Source: an uncultured virus (IMG/VR IMGVR_UViG_3300034815_000029) (lineage: Duplodnaviria; Heunggongvirae; Uroviricota; Caudoviricetes). From it: 64,000 nucleotides of DNA. The stretch lies in the IMG/VR virus record IMGVR_UViG_3300034815_000029. One strand, written 5' to 3'. This document shows positions 23,518 through 45,000 of the stretch, one piece after another. Each line of letters starts with the position of its first letter. The first letter of the stretch is position 1. Position numbers and translations under genes: made by a program. The notes beneath the pieces were generated by a model that worked only from the letters and a program-made list of their open reading frames with translations, was not told the DNA's origin and did no database searches.

Positions 23518-23521
23518 TGCC

Positions 23522-23581: not shown

Positions 23582-23842
23582 GCGCCGGGTGATCTTGTGC
23601 ACGTACTGCCGGCTGACCCCGAAGCGTTCCACCACCACGGCGGTCGGCAACTTCTTGGCCGCCTCGACGATTTCGCGCTTCTTGCCGGTGTCCGGCGCCG
23701 GGATGTAGACCCGCTCGCCCGGCAGGCTGCGCCGGATGGTCTGCTCCAGCTCGCGCGCGCACTGCTCGCCGAAACTCACCGCCGGATGCCGGGCGCGCAG
23801 GAAATTGAGGATCAGGTCGATCTGTTCGTTCAGCGTCGCCAT
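23576..23842 (-). CDS. Mor/C-like transcription activator
   Basis: GERVYIP then C-terminal HTH (RFGVSRQYVHKI). Confidence 0.75.
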   Translation of the reverse strand: MATLNEQIDLILNFLRARHPAVSFGEQCARELEQTIRRSLPGERVYIPAPDTGKKREIVEAAKKLPTAVVVERFGVSRQYVHKITRRR

Positions 23843-23843
23843 C

Positions 23844-26332: not shown

Positions 26333-26414
26333 AACCCCCTTACAATAACCCCATATCTAGCGCCATGCCGCGCTGCTTCATACCCGTAAAACAAAGCATC
26401 AGGGAGTACCTTTT

Positions 26415-27694: not shown

Positions 27695-27948
27695 TTCTTT
27701 TCCTTCCCCTGCCTTCTGTTTTTCTGCTCGAACTCAATCAATTTGCTAATCCTTAACCACTGCTCAAACTTCATCGAAAACGTGCCAACCGGCCGGAAAT
27801 TTCCGATTTTTTTGCCGTTTTCTTCTGCATTAATCAGCTTCACATCACTGCCAAAAGCCGCACGAAACTCAGCCAATACCCCAGCCGCAAACGGAAAGTT
27901 GCGCCGGTTTTCGGCGGCCTGATCTTCCTTGTCACATGTCGACGCCAC
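27691..27948 (-). CDS. Hypothetical protein
   Basis: AGGAGG RBS with GTG start, between dnaB and rep. Confidence 0.6.
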   Translation of the reverse strand: MASTCDKEDQAAENRRNFPFAAGVLAEFRAAFGSDVKLINAEENGKKIGNFRPVGTFSMKFEQWLRISKLIEFEQKNRRQGKEKK

Positions 27949-29371: not shown

Positions 29372-29561
29372 TGCGCGACCTCGCATCCTGCTGCTTCTGC
29401 CAGTCGTCCCTGCACTCCGGGCCGCAGAACTGTTCCTCGACGGGGGAGTGGCACCAGTGGCAGGCGCCGATTGACGGCAGGGAATGAATCGACCGGGCGG
29501 CTTTCAAGGCGCGATCCCGGTCGGCTTCCTCGCGGTCACTTGCTCGGTCGGCTTCGTCCAT
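29361..29561 (-). CDS. TraR/DksA-like C4 zinc-finger protein
   Basis: MDEADRA...CHWC...FCGPEC. Confidence 0.7.
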   Translation of the reverse strand: MDEADRASDREEADRDRALKAARSIHSLPSIGACHWCHSPVEEQFCGPECRDDWQKQQDARSRNGE

Positions 29562-29699
29562 GGTCTCTCCCCAGGTTGAGCAATGCCAGAAGGCGTTCGC
29601 ACACGGTATGCGCCGCCTGTTTCTTGTTGAGCTCGACGGGTATCCGCTTGGCCAGTGAGTTGGCCTTGCTGAATACGAAGGTCTCTTGTGCGCGGATGC

Positions 29700-30080
29700 T
29701 CACGCCATCCCCTTGCCCACTGCCTTGATCAGCGCCAGCACGTCCGGCAGCTGCTTCGCCAGTTCAGCCAGAGCGCGGCGCTGCTTCACATCCTCATCTG
29801 TCAGGTATTTCTCGACCAGGTAATAGATCGGGGTCATATCCCCGGTTGCGGCGATGAACTTCTCCAGATCCTCGACCGTAAACCGGCGGTGGTCTTCCGG
29901 ATTCCCGGATAGCTTCCGGGACAGCTCGGACTGGCTCAAGTCCATGTCCGCTGCGATGGTCTTGAGCGGGTTGCGATGCGTATAGGTCGCGGCCCTGACG
30001 CAATCCAGAATGGTCGCGTGGCGCTCGGAAAGTCCGGGCGTGAAATCAAGGGTAAGCTGGCTATTGGAAACTGTTGTCAT
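29700..30080 (-). CDS. CII-like regulator
   Basis: HTH (IAADMDLSQSELSRKL), downstream of cro. Confidence 0.65.
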   Translation of the reverse strand: MTTVSNSQLTLDFTPGLSERHATILDCVRAATYTHRNPLKTIAADMDLSQSELSRKLSGNPEDHRRFTVEDLEKFIAATGDMTPIYYLVEKYLTDEDVKQRRALAELAKQLPDVLALIKAVGKGMA

Positions 30081-30137
30081 GATTCTTTCCCTTACTTTCC
30101 TATAGGAAATCTGGCGAAAAAAAGAAGATAGCCTCAG

Positions 30138-30407
30138 TCATGCCGCAGCCCGTTGATTTGGGTTTTCGCCAAAAACATCCGAGCGCAGGTCATAGCGGGT
30201 TACTTGTCCGCCAGTCGCGTCCTCGATAGCACGGCAGTGCTCTGCGGGCGGCATTGGAGTCTTGGTGGTGTTCAGCCAGTTCCAGACGTGGCCCTGGGCA
30301 ACGCGCACTTCGCGCCCATTCGCCTGGTGCCATTCACGGATGGCGGTCGCCAATGCGACTTGACCTCCGACGAGTTCGATTGCTTTTTGGAGTGGGGTAA
30401 TCATCAT
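30138..30407 (-). CDS. Cro/YdaS-like regulator
   Basis: GGQVALA...AIEDATGGQVTRYDLRSDVFG. Confidence 0.85.
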   Translation of the reverse strand: MMITPLQKAIELVGGQVALATAIREWHQANGREVRVAQGHVWNWLNTTKTPMPPAEHCRAIEDATGGQVTRYDLRSDVFGENPNQRAAA

Positions 30408-30409
30408 GG

Positions 30410-30492
30410 AAACAAATTACCATCATCGTAGTAACGATGTCAACCATCATTGTTGTTTTACACAATACAAGCACGGTTGTATTGTTCAATCC
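30410..30492. promoter_or_regulatory. Divergent cro/cI operator region
   Basis: ACCATCATCGT and ACCATCATTGT near-palindromes; related ACAATCATCGT at ~31898. Confidence 0.6.
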
Positions 30493-30843
30493 ATGAATCT
30501 TGCAGAGCGGATACAGACAGCCAGAAAGCATGCCGCCCTTACACAGGGAGGATTAGCCGAAAAAGCGGGGATTTCTCAGCAGGCCATATCTCGCCTTGAA
30601 ACTGGCGAACAAAAAACCACCACCGATATTGTGCAGATCGCCGTTGCCTGCGGAGTCCGTCCTGAGTGGCTGGCAATGGAATCTGGCGATATGGTGGATG
30701 GGTTGTACGTGCATGACGAAAAGCTCAAGCAGTTGCTCAAAATCGCTCAGGAGTTGCCAGAGTACGGAAAAGACAAGGCGATACGGGAAGTTACTGAGAT
30801 TGTTGAATTCATCGAACAGGCAGCCAAGGCGGCGAAGCAATAA
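30493..30843 (+). CDS. CI-like XRE repressor without peptidase domain
   Basis: LAERIQTARK..LTQ.LAEKAGISQQAISRLE. Confidence 0.85.
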   Translation: MNLAERIQTARKHAALTQGGLAEKAGISQQAISRLETGEQKTTTDIVQIAVACGVRPEWLAMESGDMVDGLYVHDEKLKQLLKIAQELPEYGKDKAIREVTEIVEFIEQAAKAAKQ

Positions 30844-30945
30844 CGTGATCCAGCTTCAAATACAGCTCGCCTTTTGCTTCGACAAGGACACTTATGGCGC
30901 TTAAAAAGCGCGGAAGGCAGTAAACCGAAACGGAGGAATATCGTA

Positions 30946-31458
30946 ATGCGTAAAATTTGTTTCGTTATTTTATGTGCCATTTTAGGCGGCTGCGTTGCTC
31001 CTCAAAAGATAAGCATTTCATCACCGTTCGATCCCGTTCTAACGAAGAAATTGCTTGCGGATGGGATAAACACTATTCAGGGAAGCGCCCTTATCAGGCA
31101 AAGAGGGGGTGGCGTCGTCACCTGCGCAGGACAGGAGGTAACACTTACCCCTGCAACAGCTTACTCATCCGAAAGGGTAAAGGCGCTCTTTGGGTCATCG
31201 CTGGGCGGCTATGCCCCCGCTTTTGGTGGGCGACGAGTCGAATTTGAAAGTACAGCACCAGAATATTGGTCATCCTCAAGATCGACAATATGTGACGCTC
31301 AAGGTAATTTCAGGTTCGATAAAATGGCCGATGGATCATTTTATGTAAATACTCAAATCACCTGGAACGTCAGCCCTTACGCGACGGAAGGGGGAAGCAT
31401 AACCCGTTTAATCACATTATCCGGCGGGGAAACTAAGAATATCGTGCTTACCCCTTGA
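30946..31458 (+). CDS. Lipoprotein (moron)
   Basis: ILGGC lipobox; GGAGG RBS. Confidence 0.8.
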   Translation: MRKICFVILCAILGGCVAPQKISISSPFDPVLTKKLLADGINTIQGSALIRQRGGGVVTCAGQEVTLTPATAYSSERVKALFGSSLGGYAPAFGGRRVEFESTAPEYWSSSRSTICDAQGNFRFDKMADGSFYVNTQITWNVSPYATEGGSITRLITLSGGETKNIVLTP

Positions 31459-31539
31459 TGCTGAAATTGCCCACCAACCCCAGCAACATGCAATGGCAGA
31501 CCACCGCAGAGGCCAGGGCCAAGGATAAATGGGAATAAT

Positions 31540-31779
31540 ATGAGCGCTCATGACTATACGGTCGAGTTTGACTATCTGACTGGCGGGGCTATTTCGGCGA
31601 CTGCAACCCCGGACGGCAGCCTGGTTGCGATTGATTTTGTCCTGCTTCATGACCCATCAATGGCAGTCCGCCTCGCTGTCCCCGCAGAGAAATTAGAAAG
31701 TCTGACCAACGCTTTACTTCAGATTCAGAAGGCCCTGGACGATCCGGAAAGCGGAATACATATTCGCCCTTCGCATTAA
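31540..31779 (+). CDS. Hypothetical protein
   Basis: ORF followed by a terminator. Confidence 0.55.
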   Translation: MSAHDYTVEFDYLTGGAISATATPDGSLVAIDFVLLHDPSMAVRLAVPAEKLESLTNALLQIQKALDDPESGIHIRPSH

Positions 31780-31809
31780 TCTTCATATCTAGCATTTCAC
31801 TCTCCCCAT

Positions 31810-31834
31810 AACCCGCTTCGGCGGGTTTTTTGTT
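31810..31834 (+). terminator. Intrinsic terminator
   Basis: ACCCGC-TTCG-GCGGGT followed by a T run. Confidence 0.85.
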
Positions 31835-31885
31835 GCCCGCGATTTGCGGGTTTTTTCATTGTAGCAAATAAAACAATGATAATGG

Positions 31886-31915
31886 TTGACACATAAACAA
31901 TCATCGTTGTATATT
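31886..31915 (+). promoter_or_regulatory. PL-like early promoter upstream of the cassette array
   Basis: TTGACA-18 bp-TATATT with an operator-like motif in the spacer. Confidence 0.7.
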
Positions 31916-32135
31916 GAACCCCATCGCACCATGAACACCGCCCCTACCGGCAATGACCAGCACCAAGGCACGGCCCACGGGTAGACAGCGCGACAGGCCG
32001 CAGGGCGGGCAGCACAGAACTGAAGAACCCGGTAGGCCGGGCGGTAGCTGGACCGTAACAGCCGACTCGGGGGTCCGAAAAATCCCGCCCTGGCCAGGGA
32101 AAACGGCACCAGACAACCCATAACAGGAGAAAACC

Positions 32136-32522
32136 ATGAGCCTGCTACAAAAAACCCTCGACAGCATCGAAGCCGAAGCCGACAAGAAAAGCGCCATCGC
32201 CGTGGCTCACGCCGGGACCATCCATGAACTGGAAACGCTCACCGGAATCCTGAGCGGACTGGGAGCCGGAGAACTCCGGCCCGTCGTGACTTTTCATGAA
32301 CGCACAGAAGACATCCACTCCGCGATGGCGATCGATGTCCGCATCCTGGTGTTCCAGGATCAAGCCGCCACGCTCCGGGCGGTGGATAAATCGGGGCGTA
32401 GCCATACGCTGGAGATCGGCAAAGGCTATGACGGCAGACCCGAAACTACCGTGCGCTTCGAGGGACTGTCCAGCTACATCACGATAATCGACTACGTGCA
32501 CGCAATGGAACAGGCGGCCTGA
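32136..32522 (+). CDS. Early hypothetical protein
   Basis: AGGAG RBS. Confidence 0.7.
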   Translation: MSLLQKTLDSIEAEADKKSAIAVAHAGTIHELETLTGILSGLGAGELRPVVTFHERTEDIHSAMAIDVRILVFQDQAATLRAVDKSGRSHTLEIGKGYDGRPETTVRFEGLSSYITIIDYVHAMEQAA

Positions 32523-32720
32523 ATGCAGACCCTGATCGGCATCCTCGTCCAGCCCTACGAAGAACAGCGCATCAGCCTGCTGATCGAGGGTATGCAGGCG
32601 CAGAAGCACTGGCTGAGTGTGGATGATTGCCTATACGAGATTCTAAACAACGGAATCATCACCTCCGAGGCGCTTTACCGCGCATCGATTAAAAATATGG
32701 AGAACGACCATGCCTATTGA
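32523..32720 (+). CDS. Early hypothetical protein
   Basis: Abuts the previous ORF. Confidence 0.6.
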   Translation: MQTLIGILVQPYEEQRISLLIEGMQAQKHWLSVDDCLYEILNNGIITSEALYRASIKNMENDHAY

Positions 32721-32901
32721 CCAAGTCATCCCGCTCGGCACCGAAACCCGCCCTGAAATCGCGGCCCGCATGGCGCAGGCGCGCGGACTCATGCTGCTGG
32801 TAAAGCAAGCCACCGGACAGATGATCCTGTGCAGCCGCAAACTTCCCGGCTGGCAGCGCTGGATTGTCGCCATTCACACCTACTCACCGGAGGCCGCATG
32901 A
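32710..32901 (+). CDS. Early hypothetical protein
   Basis: GGAG RBS, coupled. Confidence 0.6.
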   Translation: MPIDQVIPLGTETRPEIAARMAQARGLMLLVKQATGQMILCSRKLPGWQRWIVAIHTYSPEAA

Positions 32902-33125
32902 AGCTCATCATCACCGGATTGATTGTTCTCGCCGTCGCTGCCGCCCTGATCGTCAAGAATGCCGATGCGATCGATAGCTATCAGCTCCACAACGACGGCG
33001 TCACCGCCTGCAAACCGCCGCGCAACGAAGCCGAGAAGCTCGTCGCTACGCTCTACAAAAGCGCCGATGGCGGGCCGCTTACGCTGCATTGCGCCTACCA
33101 CGCCACTGTGAGCTTTGCGCTATGA
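32898..33125 (+). CDS. Early protein with signal/TM segment
   Basis: GGAGG RBS, ATGA overlap. Confidence 0.6.
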   Translation: MKLIITGLIVLAVAAALIVKNADAIDSYQLHNDGVTACKPPRNEAEKLVATLYKSADGGPLTLHCAYHATVSFAL

Positions 33126-33346
33126 GCGTAACCCGCTTCCAGATGCTGACACAGGCACAGCGCAACTTGGACATGGCCGACCTGCTGGCAGCCAATGGAG
33201 ACTATGACGGCGCAGCCAGGAACACGGCCGCAGCCAGAGCACTGATTTTCACCGAGAGCACCAACCCGCCCAGCCGGAGCGTGGCGGCAAGCCCGAATAA
33301 CACCGGCAGCTGCAGCGCTGGCCGAGAAAGCCTCCTTACAGCGTGA
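33122..33346 (+). CDS. Early hypothetical protein
   Basis: ATGA overlap. Confidence 0.55.
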   Translation: MSVTRFQMLTQAQRNLDMADLLAANGDYDGAARNTAAARALIFTESTNPPSRSVAASPNNTGSCSAGRESLLTA

Positions 33347-33383
33347 TGCAACCGGCCGCCGGGAGCCGTAATCCCGGCACTTA

Positions 33384-33461
33384 TTTGAACGTAGAGCTAA
33401 CCGGCGGCGCTTTAGCGCCGTCCAGCGACCGAAGGGAGCGAGGTTGAGCGCCTTGTTAGGG
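33384..33461 (-). repeat. attC A (78 bp)
   Basis: Minus strand CCCTAAC AAGGC GCT[C]AACC...GGTTAGC TCTAC GTTCAAA. Confidence 0.88.
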
Positions 33462-33474
33462 GCCAACTGCACGG

Positions 33475-34173
33475 ATGATTGAACTGCTACACACCGACTG
33501 CATGACTTACATGGCGGCGCTGCCAGATGCGGCCTTTGACTTGGCGATTGTTGACCCGCCATACGGGCGCGGCGAGGACGGCGGCACAAACCGATGCCAC
33601 GGCGTGAAGCAGAAGAACGGCGCGGTGCTGCGGTGCCTCGATGGCGGCTACGCGAAGAAGGCTTGGGACAAGGAACCGCCACCGCCTGAGTATTTCGCGG
33701 AACTGCGCAGGGTGGCAAAGCACCAGATTGTTTGGGGTGCGAACTACATGCCGGTGAAACTGCAAGGCGGGGCAATTGTTTGGGACAAGGTGAATGACGG
33801 AGCCGACCAGAGCGGCGCGGAAATAGCCTACTGCAGCTTGAACGAGCGCGTGGACGTGGTGCGCTATATGTGGCGCGGGATGATGCAGGGAGAGGCGGTA
33901 GGCAGCCAACGCCAGCAGGGAAACAAGGCGCTGAACGAGCGCCGGATTCACCCGACACAGAAGCCGGTTAAGTTGTACGAATGGTTGCTGCAGCAGTACG
34001 CGCAGCCGGGAATGAAGGTTTTAGATACCCACCTTGGCAGCGGGAGCGCGGCGATTGCAGCGCACTACTACGGGGTGGATTTTGTGGGGTGCGAGATAGA
34101 TGCCGACTACTGGCTAGCAGCCAAGGAACGGTTTGAGGCTGAAACCCGGCAGATGGCGTTACTTGGCCCCTAA
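33475..34173 (+). CDS. N4C/N6A DNA methyltransferase, cassette A
   Basis: DPPY, HPTQKP, LDTHLGSGS. Confidence 0.9.
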   Translation: MIELLHTDCMTYMAALPDAAFDLAIVDPPYGRGEDGGTNRCHGVKQKNGAVLRCLDGGYAKKAWDKEPPPPEYFAELRRVAKHQIVWGANYMPVKLQGGAIVWDKVNDGADQSGAEIAYCSLNERVDVVRYMWRGMMQGEAVGSQRQQGNKALNERRIHPTQKPVKLYEWLLQQYAQPGMKVLDTHLGSGSAAIAAHYYGVDFVGCEIDADYWLAAKERFEAETRQMALLGP

Positions 34174-34229
34174 CGCATAGGTAAGGGGACTGAGCAACGC
34201 GAAGTTCCCGCTTGACCGCTGAGTTAGGC
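34168..34229 (-). repeat. attC B (62 bp)
   Basis: CCCTAAC...GGTAAGGGGA...TCCCGCTTGACC...GTTAGGC. Confidence 0.9.
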
Positions 34230-34253
34230 GGAATTTTGAAAAAGGAGATGGTC

Positions 34254-34427
34254 GTGGCAAAACTAATAACGTTGAACATTGAGCGATTTGTGGTTTGCAG
34301 CACTGGCGAGGAAATGGAAATACCAGAACCGGCAGACAGTCTTGAAGCCGCGATAAAACTTCGAGACGATAAGCAGGCTGGTGATGAATATGAGACATGG
34401 GAAATTGTGGCGGAAGTTGCCGCCTAA
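34254..34427 (+). CDS. Hypothetical protein, cassette B
   Basis: AAGGAG RBS; stop codon in GCCTAAC. Confidence 0.65.
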   Translation: MAKLITLNIERFVVCSTGEEMEIPEPADSLEAAIKLRDDKQAGDEYETWEIVAEVAA

Positions 34428-34512
34428 CGGCGAAGCTAAGGGGCGCGAGCGATGACAAAACAACGAAGTGAGCCGGATGTTCGAGCGTCACGCCTTGAGC
34501 GCCTTGTTGGGC
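34422..34512 (-). repeat. attC C (91 bp)
   Basis: GCCTAAC...GCTAAGG...CCTTGAGC...GTTGGGC. Confidence 0.82.
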
Positions 34513-34676
34513 GATTGTGGGCATTAGTCTGGAGGCGATGGATGACTGGCCCAGGTGGGCAACCTCGCCGTGTGGTGCGCGTGAAGGGGTGGCGCACTGC
34601 GATTATTGAGAGCGATTGGGAAATGCGGCAGACCATTACGCCATGTTTCTCGATTTTTGGATGGCGGTTTGATTGA
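34452..34676 (+). CDS. Hypothetical protein, cassette C (starts inside the attC loop)
   Basis: ATG at 34452 lies within attC C. Confidence 0.55.
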   Translation: MTKQRSEPDVRASRLERLVGRLWALVWRRWMTGPGGQPRRVVRVKGWRTAIIESDWEMRQTITPCFSIFGWRFD

Positions 34677-34680
34677 TGAC

Positions 34681-34747
34681 GCCCAACGCCTGATTTCACC
34701 GGCCTGAGCGGCTTTTTGCTCAGGTCCGGTGGAATGATTGGTTGGCC
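34681..34747 (-). repeat. attC D (67 bp)
   Basis: GCCCAAC...TTCACCGGCCTGAGC...GCTCAGGTCCGGTGGAA...GTTGGCC. Confidence 0.9.
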
Positions 34748-34775
34748 GGCTGGTAGCTACGAAGTGAGGAATTAA

Positions 34776-35483
34776 ATGGCTGAAAAAGTAACGATAGGGA
34801 CCGCTGAATTGTGGCACGGAGACTGCAGGGAAGTTCTGCCGTTGCTGCCAGACTGCGACCTGATTTTGACAGACCCGCCATACGGCCTGAACGAAGCGGC
34901 CGGAAAGAACCGAAGCCGTGGAAGCGCTGCAGGCGCGAACAAGTGGAAAGGCTCGCGCAACACGACAGGTGTTGGCGTTGCCTCGACGGACTTTGGCGAG
35001 CCGAGCGAATGGGATAGTGCGCCGCCCCCGACGTGGGTGATTGAGATGATGCGCGCCAAGGGGAAATGGCAAGTGATGTTCGGCGGCAACTATTACCCGC
35101 TGCCGCCGGCCAGGTGCTGGCTTGTGTGGGACAAGGACAACGGGGAAACCGATTTCGCGGACTGCGAACTTGCGTGGACGAACTTGCCGAAAGCGGTGCG
35201 CCGGCTGCGCTGGATGTGGAACGGCATGCTGCAGCAGGACATGGCGAACAAGGAAGAACGACAGCACCCGACGCAGAAGCCGGTGCCGGTGATGCGGTGG
35301 GCTTTGCTTCAAGTTCCCGACGCCGAGACGGTTTGCGACCCATTCATGGGCAGCGGAACAACAGGGGTGGCGTGTTGGATGGAAGGGCGGCGGTTCGTCG
35401 GCATTGAGCGCGAACGCCGGTATTTCGATATTGCTTGCGAGCGGATTGCCCGCGCACAGGCACAAGAGCGGCTGTTCGCATGA
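34776..35483 (+). CDS. N4C/N6A DNA methyltransferase, cassette D
   Basis: TDPPY, HPTQKP, DPFMGSGTTG. Confidence 0.92.
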   Translation: MAEKVTIGTAELWHGDCREVLPLLPDCDLILTDPPYGLNEAAGKNRSRGSAAGANKWKGSRNTTGVGVASTDFGEPSEWDSAPPPTWVIEMMRAKGKWQVMFGGNYYPLPPARCWLVWDKDNGETDFADCELAWTNLPKAVRRLRWMWNGMLQQDMANKEERQHPTQKPVPVMRWALLQVPDAETVCDPFMGSGTTGVACWMEGRRFVGIERERRYFDIACERIARAQAQERLFA

Positions 35484-35487
35484 AGAC

Positions 35488-35556
35488 GGCCAACGCAGAG
35501 GTAAGCCGATGACAAAAGCGCAGCTTTTGGCAGTCGGCTTGACCGCCGGGTTAGCC
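35488..35556 (-). repeat. attC E (69 bp)
   Basis: GGCCAAC...GGTAAGCCGA...TCGGCTTGACC...GTTAGCC. Confidence 0.9.
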
Positions 35557-35736
35557 GGGGGCCGAGCCGCACACGAACAATGGGAGCGCACCCGAGGCGA
35601 TGAAAACGAGTGCGATGCAGAGAAACGGCTACACGAAGAGGTTTCAGAAAGTGGCAACACGATACCGAGTGAGTGGTGGCATGGATGGCTCGAACGCTCC
35701 GATGAGTGGCGAGACGAAATCGAACATGCCGGCTAA
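35509..35736 (+). CDS. Hypothetical protein, cassette E (starts inside attC)
   Basis: GAGGT RBS and ATG within attC E; stop codon in GGCTAAC. Confidence 0.55.
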   Translation: MTKAQLLAVGLTAGLAGGRAAHEQWERTRGDENECDAEKRLHEEVSESGNTIPSEWWHGWLERSDEWRDEIEHAG

Positions 35737-35790
35737 CGATTAGCTTAAGGGGCGGCTGTTAAGCCGTCCCGCTTGAAGCGCCGGTTAGGC
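35731..35790 (-). repeat. attC F (60 bp)
   Basis: GGCTAAC...CTTAAGGGGCGGC...GCCGTCCCGCTTGAAG...GTTAGGC. Confidence 0.9.
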
Positions 35791-35804
35791 GCAGAAAGGT
35801 GAAT

Positions 35805-36047
35805 ATGACAGCAAGGCACGAAATAGGGAAGTGGCTGAATGAACAGCCGAACCGCGAGATTGACCGGCGGGTATTGGCCGAGCTATGTGCGGAGCATGAC
35901 CGAATGGCTCATGCCCTGATGACGCTGCTCGGGGAAACCGAGGACAGCGACTACATGAGTGCGGCAGAACAGCGGGCGATGGCGCGGGATGCGCTGCCGC
36001 CTAACGTCGGCGGTAACCGGCTTGCGCCCGCACAGGAGCAACGATGA
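35805..36047 (+). CDS. Hypothetical protein, cassette F (reads into the next attC)
   Basis: AAGGTG RBS; its 3' part is also present at 1-127. Confidence 0.7.
   Translation: MTARHEIGKWLNEQPNREIDRRVLAELCAEHDRMAHALMTLLGETEDSDYMSAAEQRAMARDALPPNVGGNRLAPAQEQR
35880..36006 (+). repeat. 127-bp exact direct repeat, copy 2
   Basis: Identical to 1-127. Confidence 0.97.
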
Positions 36048-36092
36048 AGAACACCCTTGCCGGCGCAAGTCCGGTTGACCAACCAGTTAGGG
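35999..36092 (-). repeat. attC G (94 bp)
   Basis: GCCTAAC...GGTAACCGGCTTGCGCC...GGCGCAAGTCCGGTTGACC...GTTAGGG. Confidence 0.88.
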
Positions 36093-36349
36093 CGCTGCCT
36101 GAGCCGTTGCCGTGCCCGTTTTGTGGGCGACAGCCGGAGCTAGACAACCCGGACACTCTTTACCCGAACGGCACCGGGTGGAAGCCTTGGCGAGGCTTCC
36201 GTTCTTATGTAGGGTTCCGCGAAGTGCCGAAGGAACAATGGTGCTACGGGATGCACTGCTGCGAGTGCTGCGGTGGATGCGGGGCAGAGATTCACGGCGA
36301 TAGTGCAGCCGAGGCGGTAGAGAAGTGGAACCGGCGCCCTAACGCATGA
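36044..36349 (+). CDS. Lar-family restriction alleviation protein, cassette G
   Basis: LPCPFCG...C..CGA...AVEKWNRR; AGGAG RBS and ATG in the attC loop. Confidence 0.8.
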   Translation: MKNTLAGASPVDQPVRALPEPLPCPFCGRQPELDNPDTLYPNGTGWKPWRGFRSYVGFREVPKEQWCYGMHCCECCGGCGAEIHGDSAAEAVEKWNRRPNA

Positions 36350-36401
36350 AATGAGGGGCAGCGCCGCTTTTGCGCTGTCCCGCTCGATTGACGGGTTGTG
36401 C
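36337..36401 (-). repeat. attC H (65 bp)
   Basis: CCCTAAC...AATGAGGGGCAGCGC...GCGCTGTCCCGCTCGATT...GTTGTGC. Confidence 0.9.
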
Positions 36402-36427
36402 GTCAAAACGTAACTACGGAGTGAGGA

Positions 36428-37432
36428 ATGAATGAGTTGGAGCTTTTCGCAGGCGCTGGTGGCGGAATACTCGGGTCAATGTTGCTCGGGCACAGAACCG
36501 TATGCGCCGTTGAATTCGATGCATATGCCAGATCAGTTTTATTGGCCAGACAAGCCGACGGAACATTCCCGACTTTCCCGGTTTGGGACGACGTGCGCAC
36601 CTTTGACGGAACACCGTGGCGCGGAATTGTTGACGTGGTTTCGGGAGGTTTCCCGTGCCAGGATTTGTCGGTTGCGGGGAAAGGGGCAGGACTTGATGGA
36701 AAGCGCAGCGGATTGTGGCGAGAAATGGCGCGGATCATTGGCGAAGTACGACCCCGCTACGCATTCATTGAAAACAGCCCAGCTCTCATTACTAGAGGAC
36801 TTGACCGGGTGCTCTGTGATCTTGCCGCGCTCGGGTTTGATGCGCGATGGGGTGTGCTCGGAGCTTCCGATGTTGGCGCTCCGCACAAGCGCGAGAGAAT
36901 CTGGATATTGGGCTACTCCCGCAGCTTCGGACGGGACACGGGGAGGAAAAATCACCGACAAGATGACGGGGCAATCATTGGTTCAGATGGTCAACACGCC
37001 AGCGAAGTGGCCGACACCAACGGCGAGCGACCACACGGGGCCGGGATATGCCGCGCAGGGCGGGTTGAATTTGAGGACGGCGGTTGCTCTATGGCCAACC
37101 CCGACAGTCTGCGGGAACTACAACCGCAATGGAGCGAGTGCATCGAGCGGGGATGGGTTGGCAACTGCTGTTCGGACGTGGCCAACAGCAACAGCATACA
37201 AGGGCTGGAGTCAGAAACACAACCGAGCGAACACGGACGACCGGCTGGATTATTCGGTGGAACGCGAGAATTTCAGCATTGGCCAGCAGACCCCGCCGAT
37301 GCGCCTGAATCCAAATTGGGTCGAGTGGTTGATGGGTTGGCCAATCGGGCAAACAGAATTAAAGCCATTGGAAACGGGCAGGTTCCGAGAGTTCGAGCAG
37401 CAGCATGGCGGATTTTGACGCACAACGGCTGA
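36428..37432 (+). CDS. C5 cytosine DNA methyltransferase (alpha polypeptide), cassette H
   Basis: LFAGAGG, GGFPCQD, IENS, HKRERIW, IGNGQVP. Confidence 0.92.
   Translation: MNELELFAGAGGGILGSMLLGHRTVCAVEFDAYARSVLLARQADGTFPTFPVWDDVRTFDGTPWRGIVDVVSGGFPCQDLSVAGKGAGLDGKRSGLWREMARIIGEVRPRYAFIENSPALITRGLDRVLCDLAALGFDARWGVLGASDVGAPHKRERIWILGYSRSFGRDTGRKNHRQDDGAIIGSDGQHASEVADTNGERPHGAGICRAGRVEFEDGGCSMANPDSLRELQPQWSECIERGWVGNCCSDVANSNSIQGLESETQPSEHGRPAGLFGGTREFQHWPADPADAPESKLGRVVDGLANRANRIKAIGNGQVPRVRAAAWRILTHNG
36432..37418 (+). CDS. Overlapping +1-frame ORF, putative beta polypeptide of the MTase
   Basis: Open along the whole gene; WPTP repeats; motif IX-like LNPNWVEWLMGWP. Confidence 0.65.
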   Translation: MSWSFSQALVAEYSGQCCSGTEPYAPLNSMHMPDQFYWPDKPTEHSRLSRFGTTCAPLTEHRGAELLTWFREVSRARICRLRGKGQDLMESAADCGEKWRGSLAKYDPATHSLKTAQLSLLEDLTGCSVILPRSGLMRDGVCSELPMLALRTSARESGYWATPAASDGTRGGKITDKMTGQSLVQMVNTPAKWPTPTASDHTGPGYAAQGGLNLRTAVALWPTPTVCGNYNRNGASASSGDGLATAVRTWPTATAYKGWSQKHNRANTDDRLDYSVERENFSIGQQTPPMRLNPNWVEWLMGWPIGQTELKPLETGRFREFEQQHGGF

Positions 37433-37504
37433 GGTAACCCGGCCGCGCCGCTTTTGGCGCGGTCCGGTGAGCGAAGCGAACGAAGGTTGACCGATGGGTT
37501 AGAA
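37420..37504 (-). repeat. attC I (85 bp)
   Basis: GCACAAC...GGTAACC...GGTTGACC...GTTAGAA. Confidence 0.85.
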
Positions 37505-37525
37505 GGCATTTTGATCGGAGCGAAC

Positions 37526-37864
37526 ATGAACATAGCAGAAGCGGCGGAGTGGCTTGAGCAAATGAGCAGCGAGAAGGCCGCACAGATTGTGCTTGAGCAC
37601 TACCACCTGAAACAGCACTTGTGCGCCCAACGCCTCGGCGTGCCGACCGGCTGCGACGATTGGGTTGCGCGCGCCATTGAACGCGGCGAACACCTGCGGG
37701 AATGCGAAATGCAACTGCGGCTGCTGCTCGACAAGGGGAGCGCGATGCTGGCGGAAGTGAAGTGGAAGACGCGCCACACGGAATGCACCAACTGCCGAGG
37801 CACCGGCCGCACTGGCGAAAATGCTTGCTGCATCTGTCGCGGGACGGGCGCTCGTGCCTTCTAA
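37526..37864 (+). CDS. Protein with DnaJ-type CxxCxGxG zinc finger, cassette I
   Basis: CTNCRGTG...CCICRGTG. Confidence 0.75.
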   Translation: MNIAEAAEWLEQMSSEKAAQIVLEHYHLKQHLCAQRLGVPTGCDDWVARAIERGEHLRECEMQLRLLLDKGSAMLAEVKWKTRHTECTNCRGTGRTGENACCICRGTGARAF

Positions 37865-37924
37865 CGCTGGCGTAACCGGCGCGGAGCCGAAGGCGGAGCG
37901 TCCGCGTTGACGCAAATGTTAGGC
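37859..37924 (-). repeat. attC J (66 bp)
   Basis: TTCTAAC...GCGTAAC...GTTGACGC...GTTAGGC. Confidence 0.85.
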
Positions 37925-37935
37925 ATGGAGTGACG

Positions 37936-38286
37936 ATGAAAGTAAAAGATTGGCACGAACCCAAAGACCAAATGTGCAACTTGGGGCGGCATAGTTGGAG
38001 CGTGCCGCGCCTGTTTGAGCTTGCGCGAGAACTCCCGGTGATGGACGTTCCGCTCAACCACCTGAGCCTGTACTACACCTACGAGAAGCTGACGCTTCGG
38101 GAAATGGTGATGCACATGCGTGCGGTCAATGACGCCGACCTAGAGAAGCCCATCATTTTGGACGAGGACGGGGAACTGATGGACGGACGGCATAGGCTGA
38201 TGAAGGCGATGCTGCTAGGAAACGAAACGATTAAGGCGGTACGGTTCGACGAAAACCCGTCGCCGTGCCAAGTGCGAGATGCCTAA
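37936..38286 (+). CDS. ParB/Srx N-terminal-like protein, cassette J
   Basis: PIILDEDGELMDGRHRL. Confidence 0.78.
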   Translation: MKVKDWHEPKDQMCNLGRHSWSVPRLFELARELPVMDVPLNHLSLYYTYEKLTLREMVMHMRAVNDADLEKPIILDEDGELMDGRHRLMKAMLLGNETIKAVRFDENPSPCQVRDA

Positions 38287-38346
38287 CTTAAAGTAGGCGT
38301 CATGCCGTGCATTAACTAATCGAGCAAAACCAATACAGGAGCCAAC

Positions 38347-38550
38347 ATGCCAAGCTTTAAGCCGGACTTGAGAATCACCGTACAAATTGGCGAAGCATCA
38401 TTCTCCATCGGCGGTTTGCTCCTGCCGGATGGCCGGTATCTTATCAAGCGAGGTCGGGTTATTTCCAAGAAAATGCCACGCGCCAGCCTGACAAAGATAT
38501 TTGAAGTGGCTCGTAAGTGGGCGGTTAATCAACGAAACATGGCTAGATAG
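38347..38550 (+). CDS. Hypothetical basic protein
   Basis: AGGAG RBS. Confidence 0.6.
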   Translation: MPSFKPDLRITVQIGEASFSIGGLLLPDGRYLIKRGRVISKKMPRASLTKIFEVARKWAVNQRNMAR

Positions 38551-38554
38551 TTTT

Positions 38555-38720
38555 CATGCTTACTTGATATATTGCCAGCTTGCTAGGCTGCCTTCTTGCT
38601 GGCTTGCAATCTTGCCAGCTTGCTGGTTGGCCTACTTACTGACTAGTTTTATTGCTTGCTGCATGGCTGGATTGCTGGCTTACAAAACGGCTTGCTTGTT
38701 ATCTGATTTGTCTGCTACAA
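38555..38720. repeat. Degenerate short-period repeat tract, putative parS centromere
   Basis: Many TTGC/TGCT/GGCT units directly upstream of parA. Confidence 0.6.
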
Positions 38721-38750
38721 ATACAGTATGTCGTCACCACTGGAAAAATA

Positions 38751-39395
38751 ATGGCTCAGATATTCGCCGTTGCAAACACCAAGGGGGGAGTGGGCAAGAC
38801 CACTACCGCCGTACATTTCGCCGCCTGGCTGTCGTACCGCGGCAGAACCCTGCTGATCGACACCGACAAGCAGGCCACGGCAGGCTCATGGTCGAGCTGG
38901 CGCCGGGATAACTCCCTGTCGCATAATCCCGACACCGTGCTGCTTCTCAATGACATGGTAGCCAAGGAGGGGAGGGCGCTGGCCAAGGGCTACGATTACG
39001 TGGTGATCGATGCCGGTGGCAAGGACAACCAGGGTATGCGCTACGCCATGCTGATCGCCGATAAGGTGATCGTGCCAATGTCGCACTCGAATTTCGATTC
39101 CGCAGCCTGGACCGACATGTCCGAGATCATCGAGGGCGCGAGGATCAATAACCCGAATCTGGCCGTTCAGGTGTTCATGTCCCGCATCGACACCCGGCGC
39201 CGGCCGCCGCAGGATCTGCGCGACTACCTGGCCGAGCAGCAGGTTTCCGTGGCTGATACACAGATCCCGGAGCGTGCCGCCGTCCTCGCCGCAACAGACC
39301 GGGGCATGGCTGTGTTCGAGATCCGCAAGTCGAGCCCGGAGGCGATCGCCTTCGATGATCTGTTCAACGAGATCATGGGAGGCCAGCATGGTTAA
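38751..39395 (+). CDS. parA: Short (type Ib) ParA ATPase
   Basis: KGGVGKTT, LIDTDKQ, YVVIDAGG; no N-terminal HTH. Confidence 0.9.
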   Translation: MAQIFAVANTKGGVGKTTTAVHFAAWLSYRGRTLLIDTDKQATAGSWSSWRRDNSLSHNPDTVLLLNDMVAKEGRALAKGYDYVVIDAGGKDNQGMRYAMLIADKVIVPMSHSNFDSAAWTDMSEIIEGARINNPNLAVQVFMSRIDTRRRPPQDLRDYLAEQQVSVADTQIPERAAVLAATDRGMAVFEIRKSSPEAIAFDDLFNEIMGGQHG

Positions 39396-39735
39396 GGGTA
39401 AGCCGGACTTATCGCACCTCACACCTTCAGCTATCGAGTTCGCCCAGGCCGCAGACAAGCCAATTATTCCGCCTCGAACAATGGCTGAGATTTTCTCTGC
39501 CGAAACAGAGCCGGCTGCGCGCAAGCACGATAAACAACAAGACCGCATTGCGCCACTCCAGGAGGGCAAGGTAGCCGCGCCGTTGCGTCTGGCCCCATCC
39601 GTACAGCAAAGAATCCGCCGGCTGGTATTCGAGCAGTCAGAGCGGCTAGGGGTGAGGGTGACGGCACAGGACTTCATGGAGTCGGCCATCATGGAAAGAT
39701 TGAGCCGGGAAGAAAAGAAGGTTGATCGTGCGTAG
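39388..39735 (+). CDS. Putative small centromere-binding protein (RHH-like)
   Basis: Overlaps the parA stop; flexible N-terminus and beta-alpha-alpha-like C-terminus. Confidence 0.6.
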   Translation: MVKGKPDLSHLTPSAIEFAQAADKPIIPPRTMAEIFSAETEPAARKHDKQQDRIAPLQEGKVAAPLRLAPSVQQRIRRLVFEQSERLGVRVTAQDFMESAIMERLSREEKKVDRA

Positions 39736-39739
39736 ACCG

Positions 39740-40033
39740 ATGGAGCGAAGCGAAATTATCAGGATGGCGCGCGAAGCTGGGATAAACTTTGACCCGGCCG
39801 GACCATCCGATGACGGTATAGATACTTGGTACGGAAACCAGTATCTACCAAGTGGGGCTATTCGGCGATTAATAGAAATCGCACAAGCAGCAGAGCGTGA
39901 GGCGTGTGCGAAGTTGTGCGAAGAACTGATTGCGCCACAGGGAACGGGCAGTCCAAGCGTGTACGAGGTTGCAACCATGGATTGCGCAGAGGCCATTCTG
40001 AATCGTGCGATGACCGATGATGTTCGGGCCTGA
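39740..40033 (+). CDS. Phage hypothetical protein
   Basis: IIRMAREAG...AEREACAKLCE...CAEAI. Confidence 0.7.
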   Translation: MERSEIIRMAREAGINFDPAGPSDDGIDTWYGNQYLPSGAIRRLIEIAQAAEREACAKLCEELIAPQGTGSPSVYEVATMDCAEAILNRAMTDDVRA

Positions 40034-40608
40034 GTCCATATTCGTCGTGCAACGACCGATATTCATCCGGGCAATGACCGATAAGGCTACAAGCCACAAG
40101 CCAGCAAGGGCAGGGCAGGGCGGTGAATTTTGAGTCACGCTAATCCGGTTTTAATACATCTTAATACCGGCGAACATCGGTCAACGCACGAAACATTGGA
40201 GAGCAACATGACAGACAGAGAACTGCTGGAATTGGCTGCAAAGGCATATTGGGGTGATGAAATAGGAGATGTAGTGTCGATCTGCTATAGCGAACTGGAT
40301 GAATCAATTGCATTCACTCATGGCGAAAACCAAGACCATAACGGGCATGACCGCACGCTTCTGTGGAACCCGCTCACAGATGACGGTGACGCGCTGAGGC
40401 TGGCTGTGAGGCTCAAGCTGGAGGTTGCTATCCATGAAACTGAATCCGGCGTAATCAACGGAAACCTGATCGGTGGAATAGAGAAACATGGCGACGACCC
40501 ATACGCCGCCACTCGCCGCGCAATCGTGCGAGCGGCAGCAGAGATTGGCAAAAGTGTAGTGGCGCCAAACTAACGGTCATTGCACGAAGATCAACGGTCA
40601 TTGCACGA
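40003..40608. repeat. Six 16-bp iterons, putative oriV
   Basis: Consensus AWCGGTCATTGCACGA: inverted at 40003, 40045, 40067; direct at 40176, 40572, 40593. Confidence 0.75.
40208..40573 (+). CDS. Phage hypothetical protein
   Basis: MTDRELLELAAKA...WNPLTDDGDALRLAV...ATRRAIVRAAAEIG. Confidence 0.8.
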   Translation: MTDRELLELAAKAYWGDEIGDVVSICYSELDESIAFTHGENQDHNGHDRTLLWNPLTDDGDALRLAVRLKLEVAIHETESGVINGNLIGGIEKHGDDPYAATRRAIVRAAAEIGKSVVAPN

Positions 40609-40659
40609 ATCCATGTCTTGCAGCTCTGCTATGATTCAGGCGTGAAGAAGGGGAGGGGT

Positions 40660-41496
40660 ATGGCATCGGAACTGGAAGAACGGGTTAAACAGATGGCCGC
40701 TCGTGCAAAGACCGTGGCTGTAGAGACTACGCTGCAGCTCCCGCTATGGCGCGAGGACGTGCGCGGACTGCCTAATTCGCTTGCCCGGTCCGCCCTGTTC
40801 AATGTCGCCAACAAGAAAAAACAGCGCGAGTTCTTCAAGAAGAAGCTGATCGCCTCGGTCAAGGGCGTCGAGATCGTCTACCAGGGCGAAGAGCTGCGCC
40901 AGATGGACGAGGATGTATTTCTGCAGATGCTGCACATATCCCGGATGCAACCGCTGGGCGAGTGGGTCGAGTTCAAGGCGCACGCCTTCCTGAAGGCCCT
41001 TGGCTGGTCACCGAACAGTCGATCCTATGACCGGCTGCGCGAGTGCCTGATACGCTTGTCTACCACGACTCTGACGGTGAAATTCGCGGACGGCAAGCAG
41101 GGCTACGGCGGCTCGCTGGTGCGGAAATTCGCCTGGACGGAAGAGGACGGCGCAACAAAGCTGCAATTCTGGCGCGTCTGGCTGGAAAAGGAAATCATCA
41201 GCCTGTTCGGGCCGGTTGATTACACCCGTCTGGATTGGGAGCAGCGCCTGAGTCTGCCGCCCCTGGCCAAGTGGTTACACGCTTTCTACTTCACCCACAG
41301 AGAACCGCTTCCGTACAAGGTGGAAACCCTGAAAACCCTGTGTGGATCTGACGCCAAGACGGTTTACCATTTCCGCAGCGACCTGAAAGCGGCACTGCAG
41401 ATCCTGAAGGACATCGCTTTCCTGTCAGACTGGCAGCTCGACAGCCGGACCGACACGGTACGCGTGGTGAGGAACTTCAAGAACCTCGTGCATTGA
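40660..41496 (+). CDS. trfA: TrfA-family plasmid replication initiator
   Basis: QLPLW clamp-type motif, PNSLARSALF, YQGEELRQ.DEDV, LAKWLHAFY.TH..P. Confidence 0.85.
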   Translation: MASELEERVKQMAARAKTVAVETTLQLPLWREDVRGLPNSLARSALFNVANKKKQREFFKKKLIASVKGVEIVYQGEELRQMDEDVFLQMLHISRMQPLGEWVEFKAHAFLKALGWSPNSRSYDRLRECLIRLSTTTLTVKFADGKQGYGGSLVRKFAWTEEDGATKLQFWRVWLEKEIISLFGPVDYTRLDWEQRLSLPPLAKWLHAFYFTHREPLPYKVETLKTLCGSDAKTVYHFRSDLKAALQILKDIAFLSDWQLDSRTDTVRVVRNFKNLVH

Positions 41497-41857: not shown

Positions 41858-42046
41858 ATGGACAATGCCGTAATCCCGCTCTTTGTCGTCGCGTTTGCTG
41901 GCTATGTGTATTACGTGGCCAGGATGGACAAGAGCGACCAGGAGTCGCACCTGTTCAAAGTCTGGATAGGACTGGCCCTGATGGGCGTCGCTTCCCTGGT
42001 GCTGACAGCAATCTTCCCGGAATTACGGGGTAGCGGGGGTGGATAG
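41858..42046 (+). CDS. Small two-TM membrane protein
   Basis: Two hydrophobic segments. Confidence 0.5.
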   Translation: MDNAVIPLFVVAFAGYVYYVARMDKSDQESHLFKVWIGLALMGVASLVLTAIFPELRGSGGG

Positions 42047-45000
42047 CGCGCGCACCTTATCGTTGAACTTGGTCATCTTCGCGGTAATCTGCGCCTCGAT
42101 CTGCTTGATCTGCGCTCTCGGCGCTTCTTTTTCGATCAGCATCCGCTTCTGCTTGTTCAAGTGGCGCACAATATTCTCCGCTTCGTTGGCCGGTCCGATC
42201 AGTTTGGATTCTGGATTGTCGGTAATGTAGCTGCGGTACTCTTCGTGATGGGTGGCGCGCCCCTTGATTTCCGCTTCGTGGCCATTAATCCGCTTCAGGT
42301 TGTCGTAGAAGCGCCCAGCCTGGCTCGCGCCTTCTTCGGCGTCGCCGTATAACCTGCCCAGCAATGGGCGCTTGTAAGCCGGCAATTCCTCTCCACTGAA
42401 CATCGATTCCCCGGACTGTACTACCTTGGACGCCTCGCGTCCGACGCCGCCGGTTACCTGCCCGATCAGGTAGTCGATCTGGTCCGGCGTCGGGCTGGCC
42501 TTGCCGGGCTGGTAATCTGTGCCGCCGGTCAGGGTGTTGATCGCCTCCGCGGCCCAGCGCGCGTAGAAGCTGCTGGTATTTTTGGCACGGGTGAAGCCTG
42601 GCGTCGGGTTCATGCCGTTCCGTTCCTCACGGTAGATCGGCTTACCGGTCCAGTCCTTATTTTCAGCCAGCGCCGCAATCGGGTCGATCAGCGTCGGGGT
42701 GATGGTTTGCAATGCCGTTGCGCTGCCTATCGGGTTGAATGCGCTCATCAGTATACCGAGCAGCTGCGCCGCCTTGTCGCCTGGATGCCTGAATCCGCCC
42801 AGCGCCAGTTCGGTCGCCAGCCGTCCGATGTTGGGGATGACGTGCAGACCGAGCGGCATGGGGATAGTCAGGTAATTCTTTTTTCCGGATACCGGCGTGA
42901 GCGGAATAATGATGTTGCGCTCGCGCACGAATTCAGGTGGCTCGTCGTCATCGAATCCCGCCATCGCCAGCGCCAGCGCTTGCATCACGCCGATGGTCAG
43001 ACCGCCGAGGATGATCTTCTTACCGGCTGGCCCTTTGAGTGCTTCCGCCATCCGCGCCGTTCCCTGCATCGAGGCGTTGAAGAAGGCGTACAGCGCGCCG
43101 GCCTGTGAGCCCATTCTCCCCTTCCTATTAAAATTAACTGTCAGCGTCTTGGCCAGACTAGCGGCGCGCGGCTTGCTCATGCCGTTATCGATCGCCGTCT
43201 TGTAGGCTGCCAGGCGTACCGAGTTCTCCATGGTTTCGTTGTAGTCAGAAAGCCAATCAAATATCGCCCGGCCAGCGTGCTTGAGCTTTCCTTCGCTGAT
43301 CTGAGCAATCTCGCTTTGCAGCGCCTTGGCACGGTCCTCGCTGGTGCGGAACAGTTCGCTATAGCCAGTGGTGCCGCCTTCGTTCTGCATTTCTTCCCAC
43401 AGCGTCGCCCACTTCGAGGATGGGGTAACGCCCTTGCGGTGATCGCGGATATCCGAATAGATCCCGCGCATCGCAGACAGGGTGTGCTGCAGCACTTCTT
43501 TCTGGTGTCCGGCAATCGGCGTTGATGAAAGGTTGACCAGCGCCCCCTGGATGTCTCGGGTGACGTTCATCAGGCCGAAAATCGGATTGTATTGGGTATT
43601 GATGCTGGCGAAGTAGCGGGTACCCTTGGCGGCCAGCCCGAGTACATGGCCCAGGTCGTCCATGTCCAGGTTCTTCATCGCCGCCGCCATCCTCATGGCG
43701 CGCTCGTCGCGCTCGTTGAACACAACGGCATGCTCTTCCACCTTGCCGGTTTGCGGGTTGACCATGCGCGAAACCACGACATTCTCTCGGCTCTTGAATA
43801 GCGGGTCTGCCTGCGTTACAACGGTATTGGTATCCTCGTCCAGCACGCGCTGAGAGGGGGCCTTGTCGGCGGTCCAGAAGTCCGGGTTTGGGTTGGTCTT
43901 GGCCAGCCCGTACAGCGCCAGCGCCACCCGGTTCTTCTCGCCGCGGACTACGGCGCGCTCGCGCTGCATGGCGATGTTGCCGATGATGTCCACCACCTTG
44001 CGCTTGCTGCCCGTCCGCGCCTTGCTGGATGATCCGCGCACAGAGAAGCCCTGCCCGGTTCCCGGGCCACTGCCGACATCCTCGCGGAACAGCGGGACGT
44101 AATGCTGGTAGGCATCAGACCAGGATTGAATGGTATCGCCCGACTCGATCCGGTAGTCAACCAGTGTCTGGCGCGTCTTGGCGATCATCGCGTCCACCTT
44201 GCCGGCCAGCAGGGAGAGGGTTTTCTTGCGCTCCGGCGCCAGTCCATTCAGGTAGTCGTCGGCCTCCTGGTTGGTCATGCCTGAACCGCCGTCCTGCATA
44301 TCCGGGTTACCAGGATTGATGTCGGCAATGTGCTGGTTCGCTTCCTTGGCGTGGCGGGCGTGCAGATATTCCTCCATCTGCGCAATATCCACCCCGCGCT
44401 GAGTCATTTCCACCAGCAGCGGCTTCAGCTCCTGTGTCTGGAAATCGGAAACCCGCTTGGCGGTGCGTTTGTGGTACAACTCTTCCTGCAAGTAGGGGTC
44501 GAATGAATCCTTGATCTGTCCGTTCTTGTTGATCGCCTCGATCACGCGCTTGGTATCGACGTGCTTGTCCTGCAGCTCGTAGATGATGTTATCCATCTTC
44601 GACGCTTCAGGCGCATCCCAAGCGGATTGATTGACGTGAGGTGTTGCGTTGAGACCTAGACCGCCTTGACGCGGGGTAATGGGTGCAGGTTTGCCGGGGA
44701 TATTTAGGTTGGCTTGACGGCTGGCCAGCGCCACATTCTCCCCGCCAATAGCTTTCAGTTCGCCGCCATCGATGACGTGCCGCCCAGCTTTAGCCAGCAG
44801 CGCTATCACATCTGAATCCGTCCACTTGTCGGTAATGCCCCACTGGCGCAGCTTGCCCATGATGTAGGCAACAATCCTCTTCCAGCCGTTGAGCTTTTCG
44901 ATGGCGACTTCACCCGGCATGTCGGCCAAGACTTCTTCAGTGGCCAGCGCGGCATCATAGCCGTACTGCTTCATCAGCTTGTCAGCCTCGATGCGCACGC

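Follow-up and report, generated by a model that had tools for sequence, protein, structure and literature searches.

The question raised by this locus is whether two phages share one molecule or only one contig. The window, the whole stretch of 64,000 nucleotides analysed here from the viral record IMGVR_UViG_3300034815_000029, carries a row of cassettes that leads uninterrupted from the early operon of a lambdoid phage into a par/rep phage-plasmid with podovirus-type virion genes. Such an unbroken array had been claimed in an earlier note, and both the gene sets and the attC-like hairpins confirm it. The same note allowed for either a real fusion of two replicons, mediated by attC sites or by homology, or a misassembly through a shared cassette. 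We refer to the left and right partners as phage A and phage-plasmid B. The main features of A, apart from its cassettes, are as follows.

1..35879, no strand: phage A, a complete circular lambdoid siphovirus genome of 35,879 bp (gene set; closure contigs in runs X1-X3)
2058..3269, + strand: excisionase and phage integrase of A (profile matches; not an integron integrase)
31886..31915, + strand: sigma-70-type promoter match (11/12) that heads the early operon (consensus match only)

Phage A encodes cI/cro/cII, DnaB, an O-like initiator, a gpA-type terminase, a lambda portal, a protease-capsid fusion, a siphovirus tail, lysis genes, xis and int. Its integrase scores 30.4 bits against TIGR02249, where the cut-off is 265, and is thus an ordinary phage integrase; a host search with this protein returned only matches of 20-25%. 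Closing A gives a single early operon that extends from 32136 across the cassettes as far as xis and int, and the promoter match at 31886-31915 is, from its sequence, the likely promoter of A's array. Record G001 equals 11642-31641 and 28500-31830 at 100%. Another relative, G006, is complete at 37,074 bases; its match to A extends to 33386 and resumes at 1367. AAC is present in it at the position where A's array begins, and the slot of the array holds a reverse-transcriptase block. No match to par or trfA was found in G006. In the slot itself (L382:1-2300 plus the record end), the reverse transcriptase is accompanied by a bAvd-like gene and by Lcl-domain genes with repeats, which is the layout of a diversity-generating retroelement. 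Elsewhere in A, a 63-base direct repeat (36 bases exact) at 15807-15869 and 22670-22732 lies upstream of two head-tail genes and brackets the head module together with an AT-rich gene of 526 aa (15934-17514). Three small + strand genes follow int at 3300-4200, where attP is expected, and the last of them encodes a helix-turn-helix protein.

38542..41496, + strand: plasmid module of B, with short repeats, ParA, a partner gene and the TrfA initiator
42023..63811, - strand: podovirus-type virion module of B, with a 4,626-aa protein, internal virion proteins, a tail fibre and an SU10 adaptor

Phage-plasmids carry plasmid replication and partition genes on one replicon with virion genes, and B, which extends from 36007 onward, appears to combine ParA (38751-39395) and TrfA (40660-41496) with the virion module listed above. 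B is incomplete, 28 kb of it lying within the window, and no capsid, portal or terminase gene of B was recognised there. The best phage matches of its virion proteins are Bcep22-like Burkholderia phages, its internal virion protein being 35-36% identical to those of Bcep22, BcepIL02 and DC1, and its initiator is 48-53% identical to plasmid TrfA proteins. Unlike the Bcep22-like podoviruses, B appears to join that virion module to a TrfA/ParA replicon and a cassette array. In run X1, ParA, TrfA and the virion genes share a depth of 14-24 but are found on separate contigs, one of which, 23,572 bases long, starts at 41551. The 4,626-aa protein (42023-55903, - strand) has N6 methylase, helicase and LPD38 domains, and we take it to resemble the large proteins that Bcep22-type phages inject. 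Ahead of parA (38542-38700), short degenerate repeats, with a second patch inside the giant gene (52891-52930), are candidate partition or iteron sites. A close variant of B trfA with many substitutions (40878-41404) is present in X1 at depth 10-16, and a 20,672-base contig carries TrfA and ParA from the same 90% clusters as those of B. Another TrfA/ParA viral contig (L006:3281-5200, L007) has an inverted cassette array near its replicon.

The cassettes of both partners were delimited with our own site scanner, which was built from the bottom-strand geometry of attC aadA7 (Table S3, PMC9892861) and the extra-G rule (PMC2727003).

120..178, + strand: attC-like site after X in A, its bottom strand being the + strand (scanner; fold z -4.95)
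200..691, + strand: A cassette gene of 163 aa with no function assigned (open reading frame)
693..751, + strand: attC-like site of A (scanner)
774..1040, + strand: last cassette gene of A's array, 88 aa (open reading frame)
1042..1056, + strand: attI-like end site of the A array (motif like that upstream of phage and bacterial integron integrases)
22753..23581, - strand: lone cassette in the late operon of A, a PAPS-reductase-family gene between the terminase and a head-tail joining gene
33384..33461, + strand: first attC-like site of the A array (near-identity to bacterial repeats)
33475..34676, + strand: three cassettes, with an N6/N4 methyltransferase, a 59-aa and a 74-aa gene (sites 34168-34229 and 34422-34512)
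34681..35736, + strand: two A-only cassettes, a second N6/N4 methyltransferase behind site 34681-34747 and gene W
35731..36006, + strand: shared cassette X, with its site at 35731-35790 and its gene from 35805
35999..36349, + strand: first B-specific cassette, site 35999-36092 and a Lar-like gene (fold z -3.58)
36337..38286, + strand: three more B cassettes, with a C5 methyltransferase, a 112-aa gene and a 116-aa gene
38281..38295, + strand: attI-like end site of the B array (motif)

Genes and sites are closely interlocked in these arrays. Gene W (35509-35736) begins inside its site at 35488-35556, and the Lar-like gene (36044-36349) starts in the loop of site 35999-36092. Gene X has no stop at the next box, and its final 13 residues come from whichever site follows. 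The remaining B cassettes have sites at 36337-36401, at about 37420-37504 (read by eye, with a weak fold, z -1.04) and at 37859-37924; the 116-aa gene product is 70% identical to one annotated as parB-like. The lone cassette of A has an attC-like site at 23581-23522 with a weak hairpin (z -0.72) and its own attI-like end at 22763-22753. When nine sites were folded, four were weak (z above -1.7).

The join between A and B lies inside this row, at the end of cassette X.

1..127, + strand: exact copy of the final 127 bases of cassette X, at 35880-36006 (sequence self-comparison)
36006..36007, no strand: chimeric switch from phage A to phage B (repeat, depth, run contigs)

This copy is the sole exact repeat of more than 36 bases within the window, and the stretch common to both halves covers at least 35880-36006. 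The switch sits one base past the AAC of the box at 35999-36005, and the sequences from 128 and from 36007 onward are wholly different. JGI assemblies are described as made with metaSPAdes at k up to 127 (bioRxiv 10.1101/2023.03.06.531389), and the terminal repeat of G006 is also exactly 127 bases. The 127-base repeat is most likely the k-mer overlap of the assembler, marking the closure of phage A; since 1-127 equals 35880-36006, positions 1-35879 close as a circle. The JGI/IMG listing places the window proteins on a 65,568-base contig, and the window probably starts where that contig starts. We propose that one sediment community would hold two replicons, the circular A of 35,879 bp and a less abundant TrfA/ParA phage-plasmid B, each with a row of attC-bounded cassettes in its early operon and with X common to both. 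At k = 127, X would form a node of the de Bruijn graph with two exits, and the contig would start at this node, circle A once, re-enter the node and exit along B. This is presumably the walk that the assembler took; the repeat, the closure and the depth step are seen directly.

Ten sediment runs matched 31001-41000, and the best four of them (X1-X4), all as contigs, were compared over 29001-44000; X1 is possibly the source sample, and the four may come from one campaign. The median depths to the left and right of the join are 55.3 and 17.5 in X1, 13.4 and 3.1 in X2, 10.1 and 0.15 in X3, and 4.9 and 0.22 in X4. Depth thus falls about threefold or more in all four runs, and the coverage step that had been named beforehand as the sign against a cointegrate is present in each. 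The A:B ratio is about 3:1 in X1 and higher in X2-X4; A and B co-occur in X1-X3, and the ratios there fit a constant value of about 3:1 if thin cover is allowed for. Contigs leave the window at 36006 with depths of 47.4 (X1), 12.5 (X2) and 10.7 (X3) and continue at 128. These contigs re-match 21 bases that are repeated at 727-747, and their loose end is window 748-777 in X1-X3. A 7,128-base contig of X3 covers 33419-36006 with no branch, and a Logan contig of that same length holds exact matches to the A integrase and the 163-aa cassette gene. Twenty protein look-ups, five of them for proteins absent from the collection, gave a similar picture: gene X with the A tail is on seven contigs, the longest of 36,023 bases, and with the B tail on one; five A proteins, in exact or JGI-called form, are on 4-7 contigs each, and exact B proteins on one each.

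The same runs reveal that B has a copy of X of its own. In X1, the bin over X has a depth of 69.3 against 48.3 in the preceding bin, a gain visible in this run only, and a contig of X2 that begins 30 bases within X extends into the Lar cassette as far as 36344, with a depth of 5.9. The copy of X in B is real, and since a path at k = 127 needs 127 identical bases, X is identical over at least 127 bases in A and B. Another X1 contig, 33423-34688, has a depth of 64.7, about that of A plus B, and the contig 34659-35739 one of 48.3; judged from depth alone, B may share three further cassettes, those of the 33423-34688 block. No entry of B into X was seen among the loose ends and pieces listed. The whole of X lies within one contig in X2 and likewise in X3, and no branch enters there; the low and patchy depth of B may explain this. 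Two candidates for the arrangement of B were rejected: loose ends before 33388 are unassignable as its entry, the same site being repeated in bacterial genomes, and the contig end at 35739 is at odds with a B form that has lost the two A-only cassettes by deletion. Viral and metagenome collections yielded no exact match to the DNA of X; its protein was found in neither the viral nor the genome collections, B TrfA alone in no viral contig, and the B adaptor in no genome. Since close records may be absent from these collections, such negative results carry no weight.

These data bear directly on the proposal that an integron integrase joined the site after X in A to a B site, so that X would belong to A alone. 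The switch does lie exactly at the predicted crossover, and integrase-mediated cointegrates through phage attC sites are described as forming in the laboratory (PMC9892861); however, any array variant would diverge at this point anyway. Such a fusion needs no second X and needs a reciprocal join into 128. It predicts no gain in depth over X, where X1 shows 69.3 against 48.3, and the X1 contig runs unbroken from X to at least 777 at a depth of 47.4, against 48-49 for A. We therefore consider an attC by attC fusion, one of the two routes offered by the earlier note, extremely improbable.

The other route would be a RecA-type crossover within the shared cassette block that fused one copy of A into the plasmid form of B in a doubly infected cell, the contig following that molecule. 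Two circles and a cointegrate that arose by homology within X give the same k-mer graph. No branch into 128 is found in X1-X3, which counts against the attC by attC form; a cointegrate of the homology type would leave no distinct k-mer. Such a molecule would contain X-A-X-B, the order of the contig, as a true sub-path. A and B are found together in X1-X3, and the sequence that they have in common is 127 bases or longer, with perhaps another 1.3 kb (depth 64.7, 33423-34688). However, the depths permit at most about one third of A in this form, X is joined to A's own start on seven contigs and to B on one, and a molecule of more than 65 kb would be far above the A genome and probably above the head of B, whose relatives have 57-64 kb. 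No datum requires such a cointegrate, and even as a minority form it appears unlikely.

A further possibility is that the link from X to the Lar cassette belongs to a third element or to a variant of the A array, with another hidden join inside 36007-38300. In X4 the Lar cassette has a depth of 4.0 where the B core is near zero, contigs of X2 and X4 exit at 36428 into another gene, and the X1 depth over X is somewhat above A plus B. On the other side, depth in X1 is level at 14-24 over 36001-44000, one contig (37901-39061) spans the last cassette, the end site and the parA start, and the sites are shorter than 127 bases, so that an assembly at k = 127 crosses them. Such a third element, array variant or further join is very unlikely.

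We conclude, with high confidence, that the A/B fusion is an assembly artefact in which two separate replicons were joined through the shared cassette X. Of the two possibilities left by the earlier note, misassembly is favoured by the 127-base repeat, the closure contigs and the depth step, and a cointegrate is not supported. Chimeras in which co-existing viruses are joined through a highly similar region have been described from short-read viromes (Roux et al. 2017, PMC5610896), usually as less than 5% of contigs of at least 10 kb and more commonly with metaSPAdes than with MEGAHIT. In contrast to the chimeras described there, the shared region in our window is one mobile cassette, the contig holds the first of the two genomes in full, and other runs show the alternative join.

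The sharing of cassette X between A and B is real, although the join itself is very probably an artefact. That two phages draw on one cassette pool, as the earlier note had held, is borne out by depth, by contig counts and by the divergence of X tails, but their description as unrelated needs a qualifier, for A and B also share a diverged tail-fibre module. This consists of a tail-fibre tip (44% amino-acid identity) and its neighbour gene (74%), at 6343-7595 in A and 61368-62830 (- strand) in B, and is their only other homology; it suggests a common host receptor. Together with this module, the co-occurrence of A and B at about 3:1 points to one host, but the ratio by itself would also fit physical linkage.

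What kind of array do A and B share? Our scanner found seven attC-like hairpins in 33301-38400 where 0.035 were expected (200 Markov shuffles, maximum 2), and eight sites with paired boxes and the extra G in the whole window against 0.25 expected. At all eight of these sites the coding (+) strand of the array is the bottom strand. The controls show the opposite: in TJE1 (three array sites) and in the Shewanella M16-3 integron (four sites) the coding strand is the top strand. The final scanner found no sites in the Vibrio control L004, and two earlier scanners were too strict and missed control sites. An attI-like motif occurs in the window exactly at the three array ends against 0.50 expected, with 1 of 100 shuffles reaching three, a count that is not independent because the motif was drawn with those three sites in view.

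With the + strand as bottom strand, the crossover is predicted at AA/C, at the left edge of each site. Contigs of the runs end at 34688, 35739, 36006 and 36344, one or two bases past AAC, and near-identical copies of four of the sites in other contigs begin at AAC or two bases before it. Nine X sequences are invariant through the residues encoded by the box and then continue into eight different tails; X homologs diverge exactly at the predicted integrase crossover. Gene W keeps its site-encoded N-terminus in all 14 aligned members of a 64-member cluster, Lar homologs vary in theirs, and in L282 the second methyltransferase is found at 92% behind a different upstream site. Site and gene are not always inherited together, and sites are swapped in front of genes. 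The cassette unit runs on the + strand from one AA/C to the next, where the integron integrase would cut the folded strand, so that a site goes with the gene that follows it and the genes point towards the attI-like end. The geometry and the divergence of homologs thus show a cassette polarity that is the reverse of that in bacterial cassettes, and the A and B arrays represent a variant of the integron cassette array in which the genes are inverted.

A pattern drawn from the window sites matched at least 126 stretches in IMG/VR, 80 of which were analysed with their flanks. When frames ending at a site were compared with PHROGs, none of 86 on the top strand matched, against 32 of 86 on the bottom strand (the first 86 of 163). 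Applied to bacterial genomes, this pattern returned 176 frames on the top strand and 62 on the bottom strand, and a Pfam match was found for 13 of the first 62 top frames against 5 of 62 bottom frames, a weaker lean but in the opposite direction. AT skew gives a clean signal in viruses (206 of 221 sites) and was not used alone because it is mixed in bacterial genomes (150 of 246, and 31 of 57 beside an integrase). Gene direction judged by open-frame length was noisy and was set aside.

Neither A nor B, the latter incomplete, has an integron integrase gene within the window. However, four of the 80 viral loci (L057:1870-2940, L077:1030-2200, L088:3050-4110 and L101:1033-2100) carry one above the TIGR02249 cut-off, with 427-450 bits; they represent three distinct phages, L077 and L088 being near twins. 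Each of these contigs holds a complete integron-like unit: the integron integrase lies directly behind the inverted array, on the strand of the genes, and is followed by what, as judged by eye, are an excisionase and a phage integrase. A short motif before the integron integrase resembles the site upstream of several bacterial integron integrases. In A, 1066-1338 holds an HNH-endonuclease fragment with a helix-turn-helix, where related phages have an integron integrase behind an attI-like site. From 33388, the first site of A shares 96-99% identity with repeats of Hydrogenophilales, Thiobacillus and Nitrosomonadales genomes, and three of four genomes with such repeats encode an integron integrase. 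This bacterial group is the likely host group and the likely source of the enzyme in trans. Cassettes would most likely be moved by an integron integrase supplied in trans from the host chromosome or from another phage, assisted by homologous recombination between arrays in a co-infected cell, and would be expressed from the phage early promoter.

The closest known systems are the phage CALINs, clusters of attC sites without an integron integrase whose sites are reported to work with IntI1 (Qi et al. 2023, PMC9892861). The arrays of the window resemble them in having attC sites in rows, no integrase and a cargo rich in DNA methyltransferases, and with our scanner, not the programs of that paper, they show at least two attC sites within 3 kb and no integron integrase, as phage CALINs do. 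The methyltransferase of the CALIN phage TJE1 is a homolog of the gene at 33475, but the TJE1 genes lie on the top strand as in bacteria and the window genes on the bottom strand. The passages of Qi et al. compared here describe no inverted genes, although the Dryad annotation may show inverted cases, and mention neither attI-like array ends nor a cassette common to co-occurring unrelated phages. As in integrons (PMC4889954, PMC2727003), the window has the site geometry with the extra G, the predicted crossover position and a candidate attI-like end site; the first site of A is nearly identical to chromosomal repeats of Hydrogenophilales and Thiobacillus, and cassettes change neighbours at the predicted crossover. 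Unlike in integrons, there is no intI in the window, the genes face the end site, and expression would come from the phage early promoter. These arrays also differ from the published 'inverted integrase' integrons, in which the integrase is turned; here the integrase geometry of relatives is normal and the genes are turned. Cassette insertion at simple GWT sites is documented (bioRxiv 10.1101/2022.09.11.507474). Among the titles and abstract openings surveyed, with few subscription papers among them, none dealt with inverted genes in phage arrays or with integrases carried by phages in such a layout.

Taking these results together, we lean slightly towards the view that temperate phages and phage-plasmids of sediment Betaproteobacteria run an integron variant of their own. 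It would consist of attI-anchored arrays whose genes face the end site and are driven by the early promoter, with integrases carried by some phages between the array and xis-int and borrowed in trans by others. A and B would be clients of a single host, without integrases of their own, and would have exchanged X in the recent past, perhaps by way of a transient cointegrate. As this is a joint reading, our mild preference applies to all of its parts together.

For the record itself, our results mean that the fusion should be discarded and the sequence divided at 36006/36007, giving a complete phage of 35.9 kb and part of a second one, and that such cassette arrays are hot spots for chimeric viral contigs. 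At the level of the population, there is direct evidence that one cassette is held by both a siphovirus and a podovirus-type phage-plasmid, and its natural breakpoints fall at the predicted integrase crossover. Should an integrase drive the inverted arrays, the small-gene mosaicism of phage early regions would have a named mechanism, and the sites, the end sites and the phage-borne integrases would be its testable substrates. If the phages do run their own integron variant, methyltransferases and restriction-alleviation genes would move as a common counter-defence pool across morphotypes, and the reversed polarity would keep this phage pool apart from the cassette pool of the host.
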